Part shown: positions 5,327 to 62,822 of the stretch, piece by piece | Layout: each line of letters opens with the position of its first letter | Position numbering within the stretch: position 1 is the first letter of the stretch | IMG/VR virus record: IMGVR_UViG_3300037089_000506 | Origin: a virus | Length of the DNA: 64,000 bases | Reading direction: 5' to 3' (one strand) | Translations under genes and position numbers: made by a program | Notes under the pieces: model-generated | The model's database searches: none | Seen by the model: only the letters and a program-made list of their open reading frames with translations | What the model was told of the DNA's origin: nothing

Positions 5327-6193
5327 TTATTTAGTATCAGAATACTCCTCCAAAAACTTTTCAAAGTCTACTCCTTTTTTATAGTAATGATCCTTATTTT
5401 CTAAATCTACTATTTGTATATCAATTAAAAATTTAACCCCCTGCTGCCACTTTTCCTCTATCTCAAATACTTCTTTTAATTTAGGTATTACTTCTAGTAT
5501 TCTATCTTTATCCACATATGCATCCAGAGAATCATGTACAAAACCAATAGTTTCAACAGAGGCTTTACACTCATTATCTCCAGAATTCCATTTTAATGCT
5601 GCTATTGCTACTACTGCTGATTCATCAGTTTGTATAGTGCTATTAGCACAAATATTTACAAGCCCTGAGGCTTCTTTCAAATTTTCATCTCGCCTATACC
5701 TACCTGTATCTGGATTCGTTGCCAAAGATAATAAAGGTACTCTACGAATTCCTCCATGGAAAGAACGAATATAGCCGACTGTCTTCCCCAACTCCTCATT
5801 TCTCTTTATTCGTTTCATTAAACCTTTATATGTATCAAAAAAATTATCTCTAATGAATTTGGCTACAGCATAATATGACCAAAGCTTACTATCAATATTT
5901 GAATATTTTTCCTGCATCTCCTTGACTATATCTTCTAGGTGTCTCTCTTTTACAAACTCCTGTACTCGCTCATAGGACCATGATGTTTCCAGGGTAGAAG
6001 AGCTAAACTTCTTGAAAGACATACCAAATATCATACCAAAATTAATACCTTTGCTATCTTGTCTAAAGGTAGAAAATGGCTTTATCTTCTTTAGCCGCAA
6101 GAATTCTTCTTCTGTAATAGTTCTATTTGTTGTTACTCGTTTTATCTTCACATGTAGAGTATATCCTTCTTCGTGATAAAAGTCAATACCCAC
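5327..6193 (-). CDS. polA: family A DNA polymerase, C-terminal fragment only (motifs B and C)
   Basis: RQDSKGINFGMIFG (motif B), VHDS (motif C); motif A absent; GTG start with an in-frame TGA four codons upstream. Confidence 0.8.
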   Translation of the reverse strand: MGIDFYHEEGYTLHVKIKRVTTNRTITEEEFLRLKKIKPFSTFRQDSKGINFGMIFGMSFKKFSSSTLETSWSYERVQEFVKERHLEDIVKEMQEKYSNIDSKLWSYYAVAKFIRDNFFDTYKGLMKRIKRNEELGKTVGYIRSFHGGIRRVPLLSLATNPDTGRYRRDENLKEASGLVNICANSTIQTDESAVVAIAALKWNSGDNECKASVETIGFVHDSLDAYVDKDRILEVIPKLKEVFEIEEKWQQGVKFLIDIQIVDLENKDHYYKKGVDFEKFLEEYSDTK

Positions 6194-18746: not shown

Positions 18747-18860
18747 GCCATCGTGGTGGAAATGGAAATACACTGGGGACTTAACGAGGGTTTTCCTCTA
18801 GAGAATCTTGGTTAATCCCCCGCCTTTAATGGATTGAGGGTTCGACTCCCTCTGATGGCA
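18747..18860 (+). tRNA. tRNA-Leu(TAA) with 29-nt insert (18785-18813) between positions 36/37
   Basis: removing the insert gives GGGGA-CTTAAAA-TCCCC; type II body, A73. Confidence 0.85.
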
Positions 18861-23840: not shown

Positions 23841-23940
23841 GGGACTAAGGCCGATTGGTTTAGGCACCGGCCTTTTTGAATACTTTTTAATAGAGTATTG
23901 AAAAAGCCGGTTGTGGTAGGTTCGATTCCTATTAGTCCCA
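23841..23940 (+). tRNA. tRNA-Lys(TTT) with 27-nt insert (23877-23903) at 36/37
   Basis: removal gives CCGGC-CTTTTAA-GCCGG; canonical D and T arms. Confidence 0.85.
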
Positions 23941-24345: not shown

Positions 24346-24416
24346 GGGGCTATAGCTCAGTTGTAGAGCGGTAGATCTGCATTCTACAGGTCGAGATGTC
24401 AAAGTCTCTAGCTCCA
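24346..24416 (+). tRNA. tRNA-Ala(TGC), variant T loop
   Basis: G3:U70, A73, GTAGA-TCTGCAT-TCTAC; T loop GTCAAA. Confidence 0.75.
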
Positions 24417-29789: not shown

Positions 29790-29890
29790 GAGCCGATAGC
29801 TCCAACAGTAGAGCGGGTGGCTGTAAAATACTTTCTTACGAGAGTACTTTAGTAACCACCTTGTTGTAGGTTCGATTCCTGCTCGGCTCG
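29790..29890 (+). tRNA. tRNA-Asn(GTT) with 28-nt insert (29825-29852) at 35/36
   Basis: removal gives GGTGG-CTGTTAA-CCACC; G73, short variable loop. Confidence 0.8.
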
Positions 29891-34702: not shown

Positions 34703-35065
34703 ATGGTAAAACAAATCATTATTATCAACCCAGATACAGGATACAGCAAAGGTAGGATGATGGCTCAGTGCGCCCATGCATCTATTATGAGTATCCTCCA
34801 TCAAGGAGAGTATGAGGGGAATACTTTTATTATTAGGAATCTGGATGAAGAAATGCTTTATTGGATGAAAGAATCCTTTACAAAAATAGTGTATAAAGCT
34901 AAATCTGAGGATGAGCTAATATCTATTTTAGTTTATTCTAAAGATAAAGGAATCCCTGTTTACCCAATGATAGAGGATGATGGTATTCTTACAGCTCTAG
35001 CTTTAAAGCCCTCTGAAGAATCAAAGTTTTCCTTTCTGGAACCATATAAACTTAGATTAGCATAA
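34703..35065 (+). CDS. peptidyl-tRNA hydrolase, PTH2 family
   Basis: KQIIII...SKGRMMAQCAHAS, KIVYK, TALAL.P. Confidence 0.85.
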   Translation: MVKQIIIINPDTGYSKGRMMAQCAHASIMSILHQGEYEGNTFIIRNLDEEMLYWMKESFTKIVYKAKSEDELISILVYSKDKGIPVYPMIEDDGILTALALKPSEESKFSFLEPYKLRLA

Positions 35066-35303: not shown

Positions 35304-35756
35304 ATGGAGAAAACCTTTAAAGGAAGTACCATGATTTACGGTTTTTTTGGTGAGTATAGCTTTTTAAGTAATTTCCATCTTTGTGAAATTCCTTTTGAAG
35401 GGCTCATTTACCCCTCTACCGAATATGCATTTCAGGCTGCTAAAACTTTAGACATTCAGGAACGAAAGTTTATTAGAACGGCTACTACTTGTGGTAAGGC
35501 TAAACGAGCAGGAATGACAGTAACATTACGTTCTGATTGGGAGGGAATAAAAATAGGTATTATGTATGATGTGAATATGACTAAATATGAAACATATCCT
35601 GAGCTTAAGGAGAAACTTCTAGCTACAGGTGAAGAAGAACTTGTAGAAGGCAATACGTGGGGAGATACCTTCTGGGGACAGGTAGATGGAATTGGCAAGA
35701 ATTATTTAGGTTTAGTTTTAATGCAGATTAGAAAGGAACTAAAAGAGGGCCTATAG
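35304..35756 (+). CDS. NADAR family protein
   Basis: FLSNF, STEYAFQAAK, DWE..K..IM, LVEGN.WGD.FWG, N.LG..LM.IR. Confidence 0.9.
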   Translation: MEKTFKGSTMIYGFFGEYSFLSNFHLCEIPFEGLIYPSTEYAFQAAKTLDIQERKFIRTATTCGKAKRAGMTVTLRSDWEGIKIGIMYDVNMTKYETYPELKEKLLATGEEELVEGNTWGDTFWGQVDGIGKNYLGLVLMQIRKELKEGL

Positions 35757-35817
35757 CTCAGTGGTAAAGCACCGTCCTCTAAACACGGGAACTAGGGTTC
35801 AATTCCCTATAGGCTCA
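35747..35817 (+). tRNA. amber suppressor-type tRNA (CTA)
   Basis: complete cloverleaf, loop CT-CTA-AA, C31:C39 mismatch. Confidence 0.75.
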
Positions 35818-36130: not shown

Positions 36131-38632
36131 ATGAGGATACAAGAAATTTTTTCTCAGTTTGTTTACCATCAGCCTAAAGACCCTTTACAAATAATGATAG
36201 ACTTTTATTTTATGGTAGGCTATGTCTATGGTACTGACTTTAAGGATGATGTTGTTGATTGGGTAATGAAAGAAGCTGTCAAAGACTGTGTTGACCTTCA
36301 TTCAAAGTTTTTAATAAAATCCCTGAAATATTGTTGCTCTGCTGAACTAAAACACATTACAGAATATTGTAATGCATTAAAAAGCGCTGCCAGAAAAAGT
36401 ACCCCTGAAGAAGCACAAGAAGCACTAAAAGAACATTATTCTCCTCGCACTTTTAAGTTCCTAGTAAAATATCTTTCAATCTTTCCTCTTTTTTATAATG
36501 CCTCAGGGGCGGACAATGTTAGTCCTTATACTAAATTTAATCATCGTTTAGACTTGAATAAACGTAACTCTCGGTTTCCCATAAATAAAGATTCAGGAAA
36601 ATATTTAAACCAATTCAAGGCTGTAATAGCTACTCAACGTGCTCTGAATTATTCCGATACAGATATAGCTATAGTATTCGTAGAGATGTTTGATGATGAT
36701 GAAGGATGGAATGGAGCATTTGGTGGACATGCGTGGCAAAAAATAGCACAATGTATGTTGGATTTACTTAGAGCAAAAAAAATTGGAGAAAAAATAATTT
36801 ATTGTGACCATGCTTATGATTTAGAGCATAACACAGGAATTGTATTCAATAAACTGGAAAAATTCTCAAAAAATGGTAGTTTTGGATGGATAAAAGATGA
36901 GTTGGATTGGAAACGAAATAATACATCATTAAAAGCATTTTATGATAAAGTATCAACACAGTTACAACCAGTAGTTGCATATGTAAGCAAATATAAATAT
37001 GAGGATACTATACTCCCACCAGAAGAAAAAAAGGTAATAGCAACTATAAAACAAAGTATTCAAGGCAAAGCAGTACAGGGAGCCAAAAAGGAAATAAAAG
37101 TTCCTGTTACTTCTTCTACTGTTAAAGTAGGAAAAGATGTTATTTTAAATCCTGATTATATAGTAATTAAACCTAATTTAAAACAATATGAAGGTAAAGT
37201 TGGACAAATTACTGAAGCTAGTCCTAAGCTTAGGGTATATTGGGAAGGATTAGGAGAGGCTTATTTCTCCGAGTATTATTTTGTTGTAGCTAATAATTCA
37301 ATTCATCAACCTATTCATCAACCTATTTTATTTTATGCTCCTGAAAATACATTGGAGATAGAGGATACTACTGAGAACACTACATCTAAAAAATCAATAC
37401 CAGTTACGCCAGAGAATGTTAGTATAGGGGATATGGTGCAATATAATCCTGCTACAGAAATAGAAAATAAAAAAGTAGGAGAGGTAATAAAACTAGAACC
37501 TGGATATATATCAATTAAATGGGAAAAAGGAAATGATACTCATTCTATTTGGTGGGATAAAGTAGGGGGAATGTCTACATTTATATTTGCTGAACCTTCC
37601 AAAAATAAAGATAATAAAAAGAAAACGACTAATGAATTACAAGTAGGGGATGAAGGGTTAATAAGAAAACAGATTTATACTATTGATGAGTTTGAAGTGG
37701 GTAAAAAAATTATATTTACTAACCTAGAGAATAAAGAATACACAGGTGTAATAACAAAGAATACAGGATTAACTGTATCTATTAAGTATGATGAGACTCC
37801 ATCTACTAATACAGAAACTCCTTATGATGCTTATGATATAATAGAATTACTAAAAGAAGGGAAAAGAAAGTTTGAATTATTAGTTCCTAAAGAAGAAACT
37901 ACTTCTCCTCTTAAAAATATACCTCTCACTATGAAAAATGTTAAAGTAGGAATGACAATAGGATGGAATCCTGACTATGTATTCCAAAACTCTATCCCAG
38001 AGGATGATATATATACTCTTACTGCTACAATACTTTCTTTTAATCCTGAGTATAGCAGCCCAATAAGAGTTAAATGGAGTGATAATGATATTACTAATGA
38101 AGACTTACTATCTGCGGGAATACCACGATTGCTTATTCTTTCAGACTATAATGAGATTGAATCTGAGTATGATCCTGCTGATGATGGCTGGATTCTAATA
38201 ACAGATACTGATAATCTTACTTTTGGGGATATTTCTATGTATTATGATAAAGCTGTACCTGATTATGCATACAATAAGAGTACTGGTATAATTAAAAATA
38301 TTGAGGGTGATGATGTAGATATTGACTGGAATGATGGTACTTCTGCTGTATATAATTCTAGGTTATTTGCTGAATATCCTAATTATTATTACAAACCCCA
38401 AAGAAAAGGTGCTGAAGAAAACCTAAACGATACGTTTGGTCCTGTTCAATGGGCACCAGTAGATATAAAAGAAGTAGTTGTGGGAGACTTAATACGAGAT
38501 GCTAATCAGGAACAATATGAAGTTTTAAAAACATATATAGACGGAGTAACTTTACAAAGAGAAAATAAACAGGGACTTTATATAGATTTTGATCATTTGT
38601 TTAGCATGGGACCATGGGAGAAAGTGGCTTGA
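36131..38632 (+). CDS. large hypothetical protein with repeated SH3/KOW-like modules
   Basis: 833 aa; recurrent V.VG..V/I modules in the C-terminal 500 aa. Confidence 0.55.
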   Translation: MRIQEIFSQFVYHQPKDPLQIMIDFYFMVGYVYGTDFKDDVVDWVMKEAVKDCVDLHSKFLIKSLKYCCSAELKHITEYCNALKSAARKSTPEEAQEALKEHYSPRTFKFLVKYLSIFPLFYNASGADNVSPYTKFNHRLDLNKRNSRFPINKDSGKYLNQFKAVIATQRALNYSDTDIAIVFVEMFDDDEGWNGAFGGHAWQKIAQCMLDLLRAKKIGEKIIYCDHAYDLEHNTGIVFNKLEKFSKNGSFGWIKDELDWKRNNTSLKAFYDKVSTQLQPVVAYVSKYKYEDTILPPEEKKVIATIKQSIQGKAVQGAKKEIKVPVTSSTVKVGKDVILNPDYIVIKPNLKQYEGKVGQITEASPKLRVYWEGLGEAYFSEYYFVVANNSIHQPIHQPILFYAPENTLEIEDTTENTTSKKSIPVTPENVSIGDMVQYNPATEIENKKVGEVIKLEPGYISIKWEKGNDTHSIWWDKVGGMSTFIFAEPSKNKDNKKKTTNELQVGDEGLIRKQIYTIDEFEVGKKIIFTNLENKEYTGVITKNTGLTVSIKYDETPSTNTETPYDAYDIIELLKEGKRKFELLVPKEETTSPLKNIPLTMKNVKVGMTIGWNPDYVFQNSIPEDDIYTLTATILSFNPEYSSPIRVKWSDNDITNEDLLSAGIPRLLILSDYNEIESEYDPADDGWILITDTDNLTFGDISMYYDKAVPDYAYNKSTGIIKNIEGDDVDIDWNDGTSAVYNSRLFAEYPNYYYKPQRKGAEENLNDTFGPVQWAPVDIKEVVVGDLIRDANQEQYEVLKTYIDGVTLQRENKQGLYIDFDHLFSMGPWEKVA

Positions 38633-38657
38633 CATTAGTAATAATGTAAAGTATAAT
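38629..38657 (+). promoter_or_regulatory. consensus sigma70 promoter for the tmRNA-like RNA
   Basis: TTGACA-17-TATAAT. Confidence 0.85.
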
Positions 38658-38667
38658 ATTAATACAA

Positions 38668-38789
38668 GGGGAGTTGTTGATTCGATTAAGCTGATGATTA
38701 GACCTAACGGATATGCCTAAAAATCGAACAGGTCTGTTCCTTAAACGGATGCATTAGTTTAAGACTCGGGGCCAAACCCGAACTCTCCA
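38668..38789 (+). ncRNA. miniature tmRNA-like RNA (tRNA-like domain, no recognisable tag frame)
   Basis: GGGGAGT/ACTCTCC-A acceptor with G3:U70, stemless D region GATTCGA, 11-bp P2, GAC before the T arm. Confidence 0.7.
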
Positions 38790-38842
38790 TCAATGTAAAA
38801 AAAGATATTGACATTTAGTATTTTTATCTGTATACTATAACT

Positions 38843-40627
38843 ATGAAGATTATGGTGACAACAGATACGCACTGGGGCTTCTCAGTCAAAGGCGACCAGG
38901 CTAATTTAGTCATGCTCCAAAACATGAAAGAAGAGAAAGCAGATGCTCTTATTCACTGTGGAGACTGGGGCTCAGTCTCTTTTGCTGATCGCTATAACTA
39001 CTGGAAAACAGTTAGAGATAGACTAGGTAAGGATTTACCTATTGGAACTATTATGGGGAATCATGACTGTCTTGATAGAGAAACCGAACTTTTAACTAAA
39101 AGAGGGTGGGTTAACTACTCCTTCATTAGCAAAGAAGATAGTATTTATAGCTATAATATACAAGAAGATAAAGGACAATGGGATAAAATAAATAATATCA
39201 TTATTAGAGAAACCGATAAAGTACTATCTACTCAAGTAAAGCAATACTCTTTTGTTGGAACTGAAGGACATAGAGTATTGTGTTCTACTAGAAAGAAAGG
39301 AGAGTTTAAAGAATATGACTATCTTCCTGCAAAGAATATAAAGGGAAGAATAAAAATAAAGTCATGTGCCACAGAAAAAAAAGAAGACTATAATATACCC
39401 GATGGAATTATCCAATTAGCAGCATGGATACTCACTGATGGATATATTGGAAGAAAAAAAGATACACATACAGGACAGTATATTATCTATCAATCAAAAC
39501 CTATTGATAATATACTCACTATTCTTACTTCTTTACATTATACTTATACTATTTATGAGAGAAATAGAAACATACAAGAAATATGTGGTAAAAAATTAAT
39601 TAAAAAATGCTTGCCACAAAAAGAAATAATATTATCTAATGCTTCAGCTAAAGATTTTTCTAAATATCTCTATACAAAAATATTTCCTGATTGGGTGTAT
39701 TCCTTAAGTGATAGACAATTTGAATTATTTTTAATTTCAGTTTTACAGGCTAATGCCTCTAAATCTACCTGTGGTGAAAGTTATATGCTTTATGGTACTG
39801 AAGAATTTTTGGAAAATTTTCAGATTTTATGCCTTCTTCATAATAGAAGAACTTTATACAAAATTGATTCAAGAGGAGATCCAAGACTATATATTACAAA
39901 TAAAGATTCAGTTCAATTTGATGCTACTTATCATAATGTGCTTATTGAGCAGAAACAAACAGTATGGTGCTTAGAAGTACCTCTAACAAACTTTATGGTA
40001 AGAAGAAGAGGAACTACTTATTTCACTGGTAATTGTTGGAGTTTGCCTAAAACAGTATCTACTGATATTCCATATATTTCTCCTAAAAACCCCTATGAAG
40101 TATATTTACAGAATATGGAGATATTAAAGAAGTTTGATATTGTTTATCTTTTTGATGGTATGGAATTACAAGAGGAAAAGAAAACTTTACTCATTCAAGG
40201 TTTCGATGGATGGTACAGAGATGATGTTTACACTAATGATAAAAACTATATTCCTGGATTCCAGACGTTAGGTATGGAATGGTTACAGAAACGCTCTCAT
40301 TTTCAATTTGGGGAAGTCATACAGAGTCTGAAAGAGGCTAAAGACAAAGGGAATATAACAATGTTAGTAACTCATTTTGGCTTTATTGCAGAGGATGCTG
40401 AGAATGATTGGAAATCTAGAAGTGCACAGGGTCCTTTTGGTAAACTTCAAGAACCTCAATATTTCGGTGCTAATTTAAAGTATGAAGATTATCTTGACAA
40501 AGTTGATTATATGTTGTATGGTCATAGTCATAGTGCTTTTGCTGGTACTGCTAAAAACGGAACTACAAAGGTGTTAAACGTAGGTTCAGATTATGAGTTA
40601 CCTAAATATCAGATTCTGGAGGTTTAG
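38843..40627 (+). CDS. calcineurin-like metallophosphoesterase containing an intein
   Basis: DTH, GDW, GNHD, GHSH motifs. Confidence 0.85.
   Translation: MKIMVTTDTHWGFSVKGDQANLVMLQNMKEEKADALIHCGDWGSVSFADRYNYWKTVRDRLGKDLPIGTIMGNHDCLDRETELLTKRGWVNYSFISKEDSIYSYNIQEDKGQWDKINNIIIRETDKVLSTQVKQYSFVGTEGHRVLCSTRKKGEFKEYDYLPAKNIKGRIKIKSCATEKKEDYNIPDGIIQLAAWILTDGYIGRKKDTHTGQYIIYQSKPIDNILTILTSLHYTYTIYERNRNIQEICGKKLIKKCLPQKEIILSNASAKDFSKYLYTKIFPDWVYSLSDRQFELFLISVLQANASKSTCGESYMLYGTEEFLENFQILCLLHNRRTLYKIDSRGDPRLYITNKDSVQFDATYHNVLIEQKQTVWCLEVPLTNFMVRRRGTTYFTGNCWSLPKTVSTDIPYISPKNPYEVYLQNMEILKKFDIVYLFDGMELQEEKKTLLIQGFDGWYRDDVYTNDKNYIPGFQTLGMEWLQKRSHFQFGEVIQSLKEAKDKGNITMLVTHFGFIAEDAENDWKSRSAQGPFGKLQEPQYFGANLKYEDYLDKVDYMLYGHSHSAFAGTAKNGTTKVLNVGSDYELPKYQILEV
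39068..40033 (+). mobile_element. intein with LAGLIDADG-type domain (322 aa)
   Basis: N-terminal CLDRETELLTKRGW, block B VGTEGHRV, LAAWILTDG, C-terminal FTGN/C. Confidence 0.85.
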
Positions 40628-60945: not shown

Positions 60946-61689
60946 ATGAACAATAAGTCATATAAGTTAGGGAAAACCTGTTCTATTTGTGGAAAGCAAA
61001 TAATAGATAGTAATAAAGGTGGAAAGTGTTCTCTCCATAGAGATCGAACAGGAAAAAATAATCCTTTCTATGGTAAGCATCATGATAAGAAAACTATTGA
61101 AGCTACAAAAATAAAATTAAAAGAAATATCTAAAGATTTATGGAAAGATAAGGGGTATAGGGAAAAAGTAATAAAAGCTATCTCTAAACCTCGAAGAGAG
61201 GGTTTTAAAAAAGAGCAAAGTGAAAGAATAACTCAATGGTATAGAGATAACCCAGAGCAGTTAGATATAAGAAGAGAGGCTATGAAAGAATCTTGGAAGT
61301 CTGGGAGTATTTCCTATAATGAGCATTCTTCTTACAATAGCAGTAAAATAGAAAAATCTCTATTATATGATATACAACAATTTTGTTCAGAAGCACAAGA
61401 ACACTATACTATTAAAACTACTGAAAAATGGTATTTACCAGATATCTACATTGAAAGTAAAAAAATAATAATAGAATTATATGGTGAATATTGGCACGCT
61501 CACTCTGATCGTTACCAAGAAGAAGATGTTGTTCACCATAATGTAAAGGCTAAAGATATTTGGAGCAAAGATAAAATAAGAGAAAAGGTCTTGACAGAAC
61601 TAGGGTATACTGTTATTATTATATGGAGTGAGAAATATAAAAAGGATAAAGAAAATACTTTGTCCTATATTAGGAGTTTATTATGTTAG
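60946..61689 (+). mobile_element. NUMOD3 + Vsr/DUF559-like homing endonuclease
   Basis: NPFYGKHH, YLPDIYI...IELYGEYWH; overlaps the rtcB start. Confidence 0.75.
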
Positions 61690-62822
61690 AAATTCGTGGA
61701 AAATACAATTCTGCTATCATTTATAATGATAATGTGGAACAGTCAGCTTTATCTCAAATTTATGCTCTTCTAAATAATGAGGTTTCTATTGGAAGTAAAA
61801 TTCGTATTATGCCAGATGTTCATGCAGGAGCAGGGTGTGTCATAGGGTATACTGCAACTCTTACAAATAAAATAATAGTAAATTTAATAGGTGTTGATAT
61901 TGGGTGTGGAATCACTTCTATATGTATAGGAAAAAAGGATATAGATTTCCAGAAACTTGATGACATCATTCATACCTATGTACCTTCAGGTCACAATGTA
62001 CATACTTCTCAATCTGGTGGTGAATGGATTCAAAAAGATTTTAAGAAATCTTCCATCTATGATGATGTCAGAAAAATATGTGAGAAGCAAGATCAGGATT
62101 TTAATCGAGTTATGGCTTCACTAGGATCGAGTGGGGGAGGCAACCATTTTTGTGAGGTAGATAAGGATCAAGATGGCCTACTCTGGCTTACTGTTCATTC
62201 AGGCTCTCGTAACTTTGGTTTGAAGATTGCCAATTACTGGCAATCTATAGCGAAGGCTAAAACTCATGGTACTGAAGGTACCATGAATGGGTTGGAGTAT
62301 TTAAAGGATGAGGACTATCAAGGATACTTGACAGATATGATGATAGCTCAAATTTATGCTCATAAGAATCGAGAGTATATATTACAGCAGATTCAAGAGA
62401 AGATGGATTTAGTCTATGGTGATGGTCGTTCTGTTGAGTCTGTCCATAACTATATTGATCTTGACCATGAAATTATCCGTAAGGGAGCAATATCAGCTAT
62501 GCTAAATGAGCCTGTGATTATTCCTTGGAATATGCGAGATGGATTGATTATAGGCACGGGAAAGGGCAATCCAGACTGGAATTTCAGTGCTCCTCATGGT
62601 GCTGGTCGTATCATGGGTAGGCAGGTAGCAAAGAAATCATTACAATTATCTGACTTTGAGGATTCAATGAAGGGAATATGGACTTCATGCGTTTCTAAGG
62701 ATACTATTGATGAATCCCCAATGGCTTATAAGCCTTATGAGGAAATACAGGATTTGATAGGGGATACTGTAGATATAAAGTATACTTTAAAGCCTGTATA
62801 TAGCTTCAAGGCGAATGAATAA
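61683..62822 (+). CDS. rtcB: RtcB RNA ligase
   Basis: MPDVHAG, GVDIGCG, GGGNHF, HSGSR, HNY, PHGAGR, DESPMAYK. Confidence 0.95.
   Translation: MLEIRGKYNSAIIYNDNVEQSALSQIYALLNNEVSIGSKIRIMPDVHAGAGCVIGYTATLTNKIIVNLIGVDIGCGITSICIGKKDIDFQKLDDIIHTYVPSGHNVHTSQSGGEWIQKDFKKSSIYDDVRKICEKQDQDFNRVMASLGSSGGGNHFCEVDKDQDGLLWLTVHSGSRNFGLKIANYWQSIAKAKTHGTEGTMNGLEYLKDEDYQGYLTDMMIAQIYAHKNREYILQQIQEKMDLVYGDGRSVESVHNYIDLDHEIIRKGAISAMLNEPVIIPWNMRDGLIIGTGKGNPDWNFSAPHGAGRIMGRQVAKKSLQLSDFEDSMKGIWTSCVSKDTIDESPMAYKPYEEIQDLIGDTVDIKYTLKPVYSFKANE

Follow-up and report, generated by a model that had tools for sequence, protein, structure and literature searches.

Can an RNA of only 122 nucleotides (nt), built in the manner of a tRNA-like domain (TLD) from transfer-messenger RNA (tmRNA) and lacking a normal mRNA domain, act in the rescue of stalled ribosomes? 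This question is raised by a locus in the IMG/VR virus record IMGVR_UViG_3300037089_000506, from which a stretch of 64,000 nt (hereafter, the window) was analyzed. The record is 109.5 kb long, with 34.5% G+C and an estimated completeness of 62%, and holds a large tRNA cluster. The RNA, here called the mini-tmRNA, lies at 38668..38789 on the + strand, and all of its elements are given below in window coordinates. An earlier sequence-only reading of the window had proposed that it could act through SmpB or stalled ribosomes, either as a tag-free rescuer or as an inhibitor of trans-translation, and this is the best-supported reading of the locus after our analysis. The 122-nt RNA is a real, conserved gene. 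Within that reading, we favor a scenario, to which we assign a probability of roughly 0.5 from sequence comparison, in which the mini-tmRNA would be charged with alanine, use the SmpB of the host, enter stalled ribosomes in competition with host tmRNA, take over the nascent chain, and lead to its release without a tag.

A conserved family of structured RNAs

The family comprises six distinct homologues, found on a total of seven contigs of viral or metagenomic origin, with lengths of 101-122 nt and a P2 helix of 9-11 base pairs (bp). The six members are the window copy (W) and those on contigs L001, L099, L100, L101, and L074. The syntenic copies of L001, L099, and L100 were reached via a protein of 833 amino acids (aa) encoded upstream of the mini-tmRNA. 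A covariance model built from two collinear copies (R1), with which the window copy scored 147.9 bits, recovered these syntenic copies plus the L101 copy, which lies at a different genomic position. R1 also found the sixth member, which is 122 nt long, on two IMG/VR contigs (L074/G003 and L094/G004); G003, a genome of 170.6 kb, carries direct terminal repeats. Each genome harbored a single copy. In G004, the mini-tmRNA is embedded in a tRNA array, with a tRNA-Gly 10 nt downstream and no promoter of its own, and is therefore evidently processed like a tRNA.

To describe the shared structure, segments were compared using a hand-made table and two model-guided alignments (A5 and A6), MAFFT on four members having misaligned the short forms. 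In the six-member alignment, which was fitted to the model's own structure, standard pairs occupied 97.4% of the pair cells across four helices, and compensatory double changes were found at 24 of the 29 pairs; none of 500 shuffles reached any of these measures. Sliding the 3' partner by one column lowered pairing to 54-56%. Each member folded alone into the same architecture, with the exception of L101, whose lowest-energy fold differed, and the window mini-tmRNA had a minimum free energy of -37.6 kcal/mol (z = -3.05 compared with shuffles). The conserved G:U pairs indicate that the + strand is the functional strand.

Searches beyond these six members gave the following results. A blastn search with the mini-tmRNA region against 50,697 phage records returned zero matches, and no related viral loci were retrieved with the flanking metallophosphoesterase as a probe. 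An exact scan of viral contigs with the 16-mer GTTCCTTAAACGGATG yielded L003 plus two chance matches in coding DNA, and an exact-pattern scan of metagenome and genome contigs yielded four chance matches, with neither an acceptor nor a T arm. The short-form pattern occurred at 40 loci in viral contigs, none of which was confirmed by a second model, R2. Among the more distant relatives of the 833-aa protein (L102, L103, L108/G001, L111, and L116), the mini-tmRNA was not found.

Architecture of the mini-tmRNA

The features from which the sequence-only reading had recognized a TLD, namely G3:U70, A73, a stemless D region with GATTCGA, GAC, and a T arm, were all present. The 7-bp acceptor stem is formed by GGGGAGU (38668..38674, with G3 at 38670) and ACUCUCC (38782-38788, with U70 at 38786), and the discriminator A73 (38789) completes the 3' segment at 38782..38789. 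The 5' strand is followed by a stemless D loop of 11 nt, UGUUGAUUCGA (38675..38685), which holds GAUUCGA, the core of the Rfam tmRNA consensus GGaUUCGAC; the corresponding loops in relatives read GAGUUCGA, AGUUUCGA, and GGUUUCG. The GAC linker before the T arm (38763..38765) matches GGAC of the same consensus and is kept in five of the six members, with UAC in L101. The T arm (38766..38781) has a 5-bp stem, UCGGG/CCCGA (38766-70/38777-81), all five pairs of which covary. Its loop in the window copy is non-canonical and only 6 nt long (GCCAAA). In L001 and L074 the T loop is GUCAAA, and in L099, L100, and L101 it has 7 nt; only those of L101 (UUCAAUU) and L099 (UUUAACC) are near-canonical.

Between the D loop and the linker, the 11-nt strands of P2 (38686..38696 and 38752..38762) form 11 bp including two G:U pairs, and double changes across members were observed at all 11 of them. 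Both the 11-bp P2 enclosing 55 nt and the AGACCT/AGGTCT helix inside it had been noted before, and our comparison confirms them. In the window copy, three unpaired bases separate P2 from this inner hairpin, H3, whose 6 bp join AGACCU (38700..38705) to AGGUCU (38730..38735); H3 covaries to AGGUUC/GAACCU in L001 and AGAUCC/GGAUCU in L074. H3 closes an apical loop of 24 nt (38706..38729) with the motif ACG..UGCCUAAA..CGAA, in which UGCCUAAA occupies 38714-38721. A single-stranded joiner of 16 nt, GUUCCUUAAACGGAUG (38736..38751), then leads back to P2. The joiner is confined to the 122-nt forms, being present in W and L001 and, with two changes, in L074; L099, L100, and L101 have 2 nt in its place.

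The region enclosed by P2 thus measures 55 nt in the window copy and 38-55 nt across members, in each case with one hairpin, and the absence of pseudoknots claimed by the earlier reading held: none of PK1-PK4 is present in this interior. The RNA also lacks the cloverleaf of tRNA, having neither a D stem nor an anticodon arm.

Relationship to tmRNA

The sequence-only reading had looked to ARAGORN and the Rfam tmRNA models as a check, and the window copy was detected by neither. ARAGORN, run in tmRNA and permuted modes with relaxed thresholds over the whole 109.5-kb genome, reported nothing at the locus and only obvious noise at -ps80. Rfam gave no match to the window copy at the gathering threshold or at E<=10, including the tmRNA and tRNA models. 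The tmRNA model RF00023, run over the whole genome, had a sole match of 12 bits, in the T arm of a tRNA-Cys. A second piece supplying a tag frame, which the earlier reading named as a finding that would speak against it, is likewise missing, since in the tmRNA modes of ARAGORN the 109.5-kb genome gave only the noise just mentioned.

The connection to tmRNA came from other members of the family. L101 matched RF00023 with 31.7 bits (E 1.5e-11 in a small search), ahead of tRNA in the same clan; L099 matched weakly (11.3 bits) and L100 not at all, all members lying below the gathering threshold of 47 bits. The element of Mycobacterium phage DS6A (JN698994.1:28478-28560; tmRNA Website tmID 11587), the tmRNA of which is listed as "TLD only" in papers on tmRNA databases (PMC4131195, PMC11915505), scored 34.7 to 43.2 bits with the same model, also under 47. 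The Rfam TLD consensus reads GGGGguGAucuGGaUUCGACgggag at its 5' end and cuuucGGACGcGGGUUCGAuUCCCgCCacCUCCACCA at its 3' end, and the mini-tmRNA family has in common with it the GGGG start, the stemless D loop, GAC before the T arm, and the ...CUCCA end. On this sequence evidence, the family is tied to tmRNA via its least diverged member, L101, together with the shared motifs, whereas the window copy alone fails the model test; its link to tmRNA runs by family transitivity through R1. The identification of a tmRNA TLD without a normal mRNA domain is therefore upheld by the motif identity to the Rfam consensus, the RF00023 match of L101, and the DS6A precedent.

An origin from tRNA-Ala has to be weighed at this point. 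According to this explanation, the RNA would derive from tRNA-Ala and act outside trans-translation, as a nuclease decoy, a non-ribosomal alanine donor, or a processing signal, and its likeness to the TLD would be convergent. The window copy matches neither the tmRNA nor the tRNA model of Rfam, as such an origin would allow, and R1 weakly matches the phage tRNA-Ala (23.7 bits), with which the mini-tmRNA shares G3:U70, A73, a 5-bp T stem, and the unusual 6-nt GYCAAA T loop. The phage is moreover rich in tRNA repair and splicing (RtcB and intron-bearing tRNAs), suggesting a conflict centred on tRNAs, and in G004 the mini-tmRNA sits within a tRNA array. However, compared with tRNA-Ala (RF00005), the mini-tmRNA has no D stem, anticodon arm, or anticodon and is missed by the tRNA model and ARAGORN, and GAUUCGA in the D loop and GAC are hallmarks of tmRNA, not of tRNA. 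L101 also scores higher as tmRNA than as tRNA. Finally, the T loop is normal in the tRNA-Ala of G004, but the mini-tmRNA of that genome keeps GUCAAA, indicating that the shared loop is a local peculiarity and not a trace of descent from tRNA-Ala. We consider this origin quite unlikely.

As separate observations on these T loops, the tRNA-Ala(UGC) of the window (24346-24416, + strand), which scored 50.5 bits with Rfam and was missed by ARAGORN, has the 6-nt loop GUCAAA, and all other tRNAs of the window have 7-nt T loops, nearly all of them the canonical UUCRAnY. The tRNA-Ala of G004 (L094:13896-13969) has UUCGACU. This distribution suggests a possible exchange of T arms between the two alanine acceptors, tRNA-Ala and mini-tmRNA, in the phage of the window.

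Alanine identity and the proposed route through the ribosome

G1-C72, G2-C71, G3:U70, and A73 were invariant in all six members, while acceptor pairs 4-7 covaried. A G-U at the third pair is a determinant of alanyl-tRNA synthetase (AlaRS) and is completely conserved in tmRNA (PMC3985003). The fixation of these positions beside four covarying pairs argues that alanine identity is under selection. Because G3:U70 and A73 are strictly retained in an otherwise covarying stem, alanylation would matter to the RNA, which points to a path to the ribosome and not to mere soaking up of SmpB.

Upstream of the gene, the consensus promoter reported by the earlier reading was confirmed as a sigma-70-type sequence, TTGACA-17-TATAAT (38629..38657, + strand), which matches the consensus at 12 of 12 positions and ends its -10 hexamer 10 nt before G1. 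L001 and L099 keep this layout, with TGGACA-17-TAGAAT or TAGGAT, 10 nt, and then GGGG. At the 3' end, CCA is not encoded, TCA being the next three bases; likewise, no tRNA of the phage encodes CCA. No SmpB gene was found in the phage of the window (estimated to be 62% complete) or in its 170.6-kb relative G003, and since SmpB is lacking from the phage and from a relative with terminal repeats, the SmpB of the host would have to be used.

The favored pathway can be outlined as follows. The mini-tmRNA would be transcribed from its own promoter, whose consensus sequence is evident, or as part of a tRNA array in the one relative where it is so located. Its ends would be processed as in tRNAs, and CCA, which neither it nor any tRNA of this phage encodes, would be added. 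Host AlaRS would presumably charge it with alanine through G3:U70 and A73, as their strict conservation suggests, and host SmpB would bind it via the stemless D loop and GAC, given the identity of these motifs with those of tmRNA. EF-Tu may then deliver it to ribosomes with an empty A site, where it would compete with host tmRNA to accept the nascent chain. The chain would be released without an SsrA degradation tag. For this last step, two options carry roughly even odds within the scenario: the loop may serve as a one-codon template, GCC being read as alanine and UAA terminating so that only Ala-Ala is added, or the peptidyl-RNA may be hydrolyzed by a PTH- or ArfB-type activity. The phage would benefit from the recycling of ribosomes and from the escape of stalled products from tagging and proteolysis by the host.

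Several points weigh against this pathway, beginning with the failure of ARAGORN and Rfam to detect the window copy. The 6-nt GCCAAA T loop could impair the folding of the T loop against the D loop or the use of the RNA by EF-Tu and the ribosome, although this objection is tempered by the phage's own tRNA-Ala, which has the same 6-nt T loop. In addition, Mao et al. 2009, as cited in PMC4131195 and PMC11915505, found that a DS6A-like molecule, chargeable or not, strongly inhibits E. coli tmRNA, perhaps by titrating SmpB; ribosome entry is thus not required for an effect. This last result leads to the explanation of the mini-tmRNA as a pure sponge for SmpB, and perhaps also for AlaRS or EF-Tu, as an inhibitor of the DS6A type in which the apical loop would be a protein-contact or stabilizing element. 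A strong consensus promoter would suit such a stoichiometric decoy. On the other hand, the invariance of G3:U70 and A73 within a covarying stem would be unexpected if charging were unnecessary. We regard a pure sponge as rather unlikely, and the apical loop provides evidence on both sides, as described below.

A candidate one-codon frame in the apical loop

The best-conserved sequence of the whole RNA lies in the apical loop, where UGCCUA is invariant in all six members. GCC-UAA (GCC at 38715-17 and UAA at 38718-20) is kept in five of the six and is the only short frame that they have in common. Across members, GCC follows the end of P2 after 18, 18, 18, 18, 19, and 16 nt, a spacing that is partitioned among the segments in different ways (3+6+9, 5+3+10, 6+4+9, or 7+4+5). 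The five bases 5' of GCC read GAUAU, GACAU, GAAAU, UAGAU, AAAUU, and UAGAU, so that every member has A at -4 and U at -1. In E. coli tmRNA, UAGUC, the five bases upstream of its resume codon, determines the frame, and A86 at -4 is critical and the most conserved of them (PMC2481249); two members thus have UAGAU|GCC, compared with UAGUC|GCA in E. coli (PMC2481249). The pseudoknots of tmRNA are replaceable and dispensable for function (PMC2481249, PMC3985003).

The earlier statement that there is no convincing tag frame therefore needs to be divided. No multi-codon tag frame ending in a stop is present, and ARAGORN found no tag peptide, so this part stands; the qualification is the one-codon GCC-UAA in five of six members at a near-fixed distance from P2. 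A longer frame through the loop that starts with AUG (14 codons in the window copy) was also considered and rejected: it lacks a shared stop, and in three of five analyzed copies it extends into the T arm. As a further observation on the loop, the 122-nt forms contain a near-repeat of its motif, ACGGAUAUGCC in the loop (38706-38729) and ACGGAUGCAUUAG at the boundary of joiner and P2 (38745-38757). In the window copy, this second near-repeat reads GCA UUA GUU UAA, and its frame is not kept in L001.

If the loop is a template, the 101-122-nt RNA would carry out tag-free trans-translation on host SmpB without pseudoknots, GCC being read, UAA terminating, and Ala-Ala being added. Three findings speak against such a frame. 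In L099, an insertion of 1 nt (GCC UAU AAA ...) removes the stop, as a sponge would permit. GCC and UAA show zero synonymous variation in six diverged members, and this absence of synonymous drift is more in keeping with an RNA contact that depends on sequence than with a constraint from coding only; UGCCUA is conserved just as strictly as would be expected for a binding motif of an SmpB sponge. In the short forms, UAA is followed by only 14 nt up to P2, which by geometric estimate is too short to thread the closed mRNA channel as full-length tmRNA does. Against the sponge, the loop motif keeps a fixed distance from P2 and has A at -4, both of which mirror real resume sites. A one-codon frame in the apical loop is therefore possible but unproven, and trans-translation in this minimal form is a tentative proposal that we consider somewhat doubtful. 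The wider pathway of alanylation, entry into stalled ribosomes, and untagged release would be served equally by hydrolysis of the peptidyl-RNA.

The conservation of the loop also bears on whether the full-length RNA is only a precursor, from which the tRNA-intron machinery of the phage would excise the interior of ~55 nt to leave a DS6A-like, TLD-only minihelix of ~70 nt. Hairpin inserts of 27-29 nt interrupt the anticodon loop of at least three tRNAs of the same genome, an RtcB ligase is encoded, and the interior varies in length from 38 to 55 nt among members, all of which would agree with excision. A discarded intron, however, would not be expected to contain the RNA's best-conserved stretch, set at a constant spacing from P2, and by eye the interior has no sequence similarity to the tRNA inserts. 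We consider this explanation very improbable.

Comparison with known systems

A phage TLD-only mini-tmRNA is already published as a kind, namely that of DS6A, and what is particular here is the constrained interior. The DS6A element is also phage-borne and has a 7-bp acceptor stem, G3:U70, A73, and a stemless D loop ending in ...CGA(C); its P2 closes a small interior and is followed by a short linker and the T arm, with no pseudoknots and no normal tag frame. It differs in being 83 nt long, with a 5-bp P2, a 20-nt interior, a canonical UUCGAUU T loop, and 43 bits with RF00023, whereas the mini-tmRNA family has lengths of 101-122 nt, a P2 of 9-11 bp, and an interior of 38-55 nt, and the T loop of the window copy measures 6 nt, this copy being undetected by RF00023 and ARAGORN. 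The interior of the family is not small and unconstrained as in DS6A: it contains a covarying hairpin, and UGCCUAAA in its loop is conserved in both sequence and position. R1 does not match DS6A, meaning that homology between the DS6A element and the family is not detectable at the sequence level.

Bacterial tmRNA (SsrA, RF00023) shares with the mini-tmRNA the TLD architecture, alanine identity, GAUUCGA in the D loop, and GAC, as well as a GCN codon that is followed by a stop and set in an A-rich, single-stranded context with A at -4. In contrast, the mini-tmRNA has no PK1-PK4 and no helix 5, is about one third as long, and has at most a one-codon frame compared with the ~10-codon tag of bacterial tmRNA. 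Very short or absent tag frames do persist in nature: mitochondrial and plastid tmRNAs without a coding sequence are known, as are 25 bacterial tmRNAs with a tag of Ala-Ala only, for example in Fermentibacterota (PMC11915505, 2025). Unlike the phage-borne mini-tmRNA, these bacterial tmRNAs are chromosomal and the organellar forms co-occur with nucleus-encoded SmpB; none of either kind is phage-borne or reported with a single codon.

DS6A is essentially the only published example of a phage TLD-only tmRNA, and RNAs of this type escape standard annotation tools. The mini-tmRNA family extends the TLD-only design to a distant, tRNA-rich phage lineage with genomes of roughly 110-170 kb. If the one-codon template is real, the RNA would rank as the smallest tmRNA in nature that can still act as a template, and it would show how little is needed to resume translation, namely an 11-bp P2 and an 18-nt spacer with no pseudoknots; phages would also be able to rescue ribosomes without coupling this to proteolytic tagging. 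Should the RNA act as a competitor instead, it would be a small inhibitor of trans-translation provided by nature, and this pathway is under pursuit as a target for antibacterials.

Genomic context and other tRNA features

The gene immediately upstream of the mini-tmRNA in W, L001, L099, and L100, but not in L101 or G003/G004, encodes the 833-aa protein (36131-38632, + strand, in the window). This protein belongs to no Pfam family and is conserved only in its N-terminal ~290 residues, with an invariant DHAYDLEHNTG. In L099, a hairpin with a T run (5785-5835) lies ~15 nt downstream of the mini-tmRNA and resembles an intrinsic terminator; the window mini-tmRNA has no terminator-like hairpin and runs directly into the next promoter. 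This second promoter (38808-38843, + strand; 11 of 12 consensus positions) is located directly 3' of the mini-tmRNA and ends 6 nt upstream of the ATG of the metallophosphoesterase gene, implying a leaderless mRNA. Many open reading frames (ORFs) of the genome have an ACTAATT-type motif right before the ATG, and Shine-Dalgarno-like sequences accompany about half of the ORFs. As for the host, it employs Shine-Dalgarno sites and promoters of the sigma-70 type. A Marinitoga phage and an uncultured megaphage gave the best protein matches of the phage, at 23% identity.

The sequence-only reading had drawn attention to PTH2 as a neighbor. PTH2 (PF01981, E 3e-16) is indeed encoded at 34703-35065, 3.6 kb from the window mini-tmRNA, and is present in all genomes of the W type that were searched (G002, G003, and G004). 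The functional link is weak, however, as the distance is 18 kb in G003, the complete relative, and also in G004, and PTH2 is not among the genes flanking the mini-tmRNA in L099, L100, and L101. A role of PTH2 as a dedicated partner of the mini-tmRNA is therefore unsupported.

We also noted other features related to tRNAs in the window. Hairpin inserts of ~27-29 nt in the anticodon loop occur in tRNAs for Leu, Lys, and Asn or Tyr (18747-18860, 23841-23940, and 29790-29890, + strand), and an RtcB-type tRNA-splicing ligase is encoded at 61683-62822. A tRNA of the amber-suppressor type, with the anticodon CUA, is located at 35747-35817 (+ strand) and is conserved in L001 (3616-3687), and the long ORFs are open under code 11.

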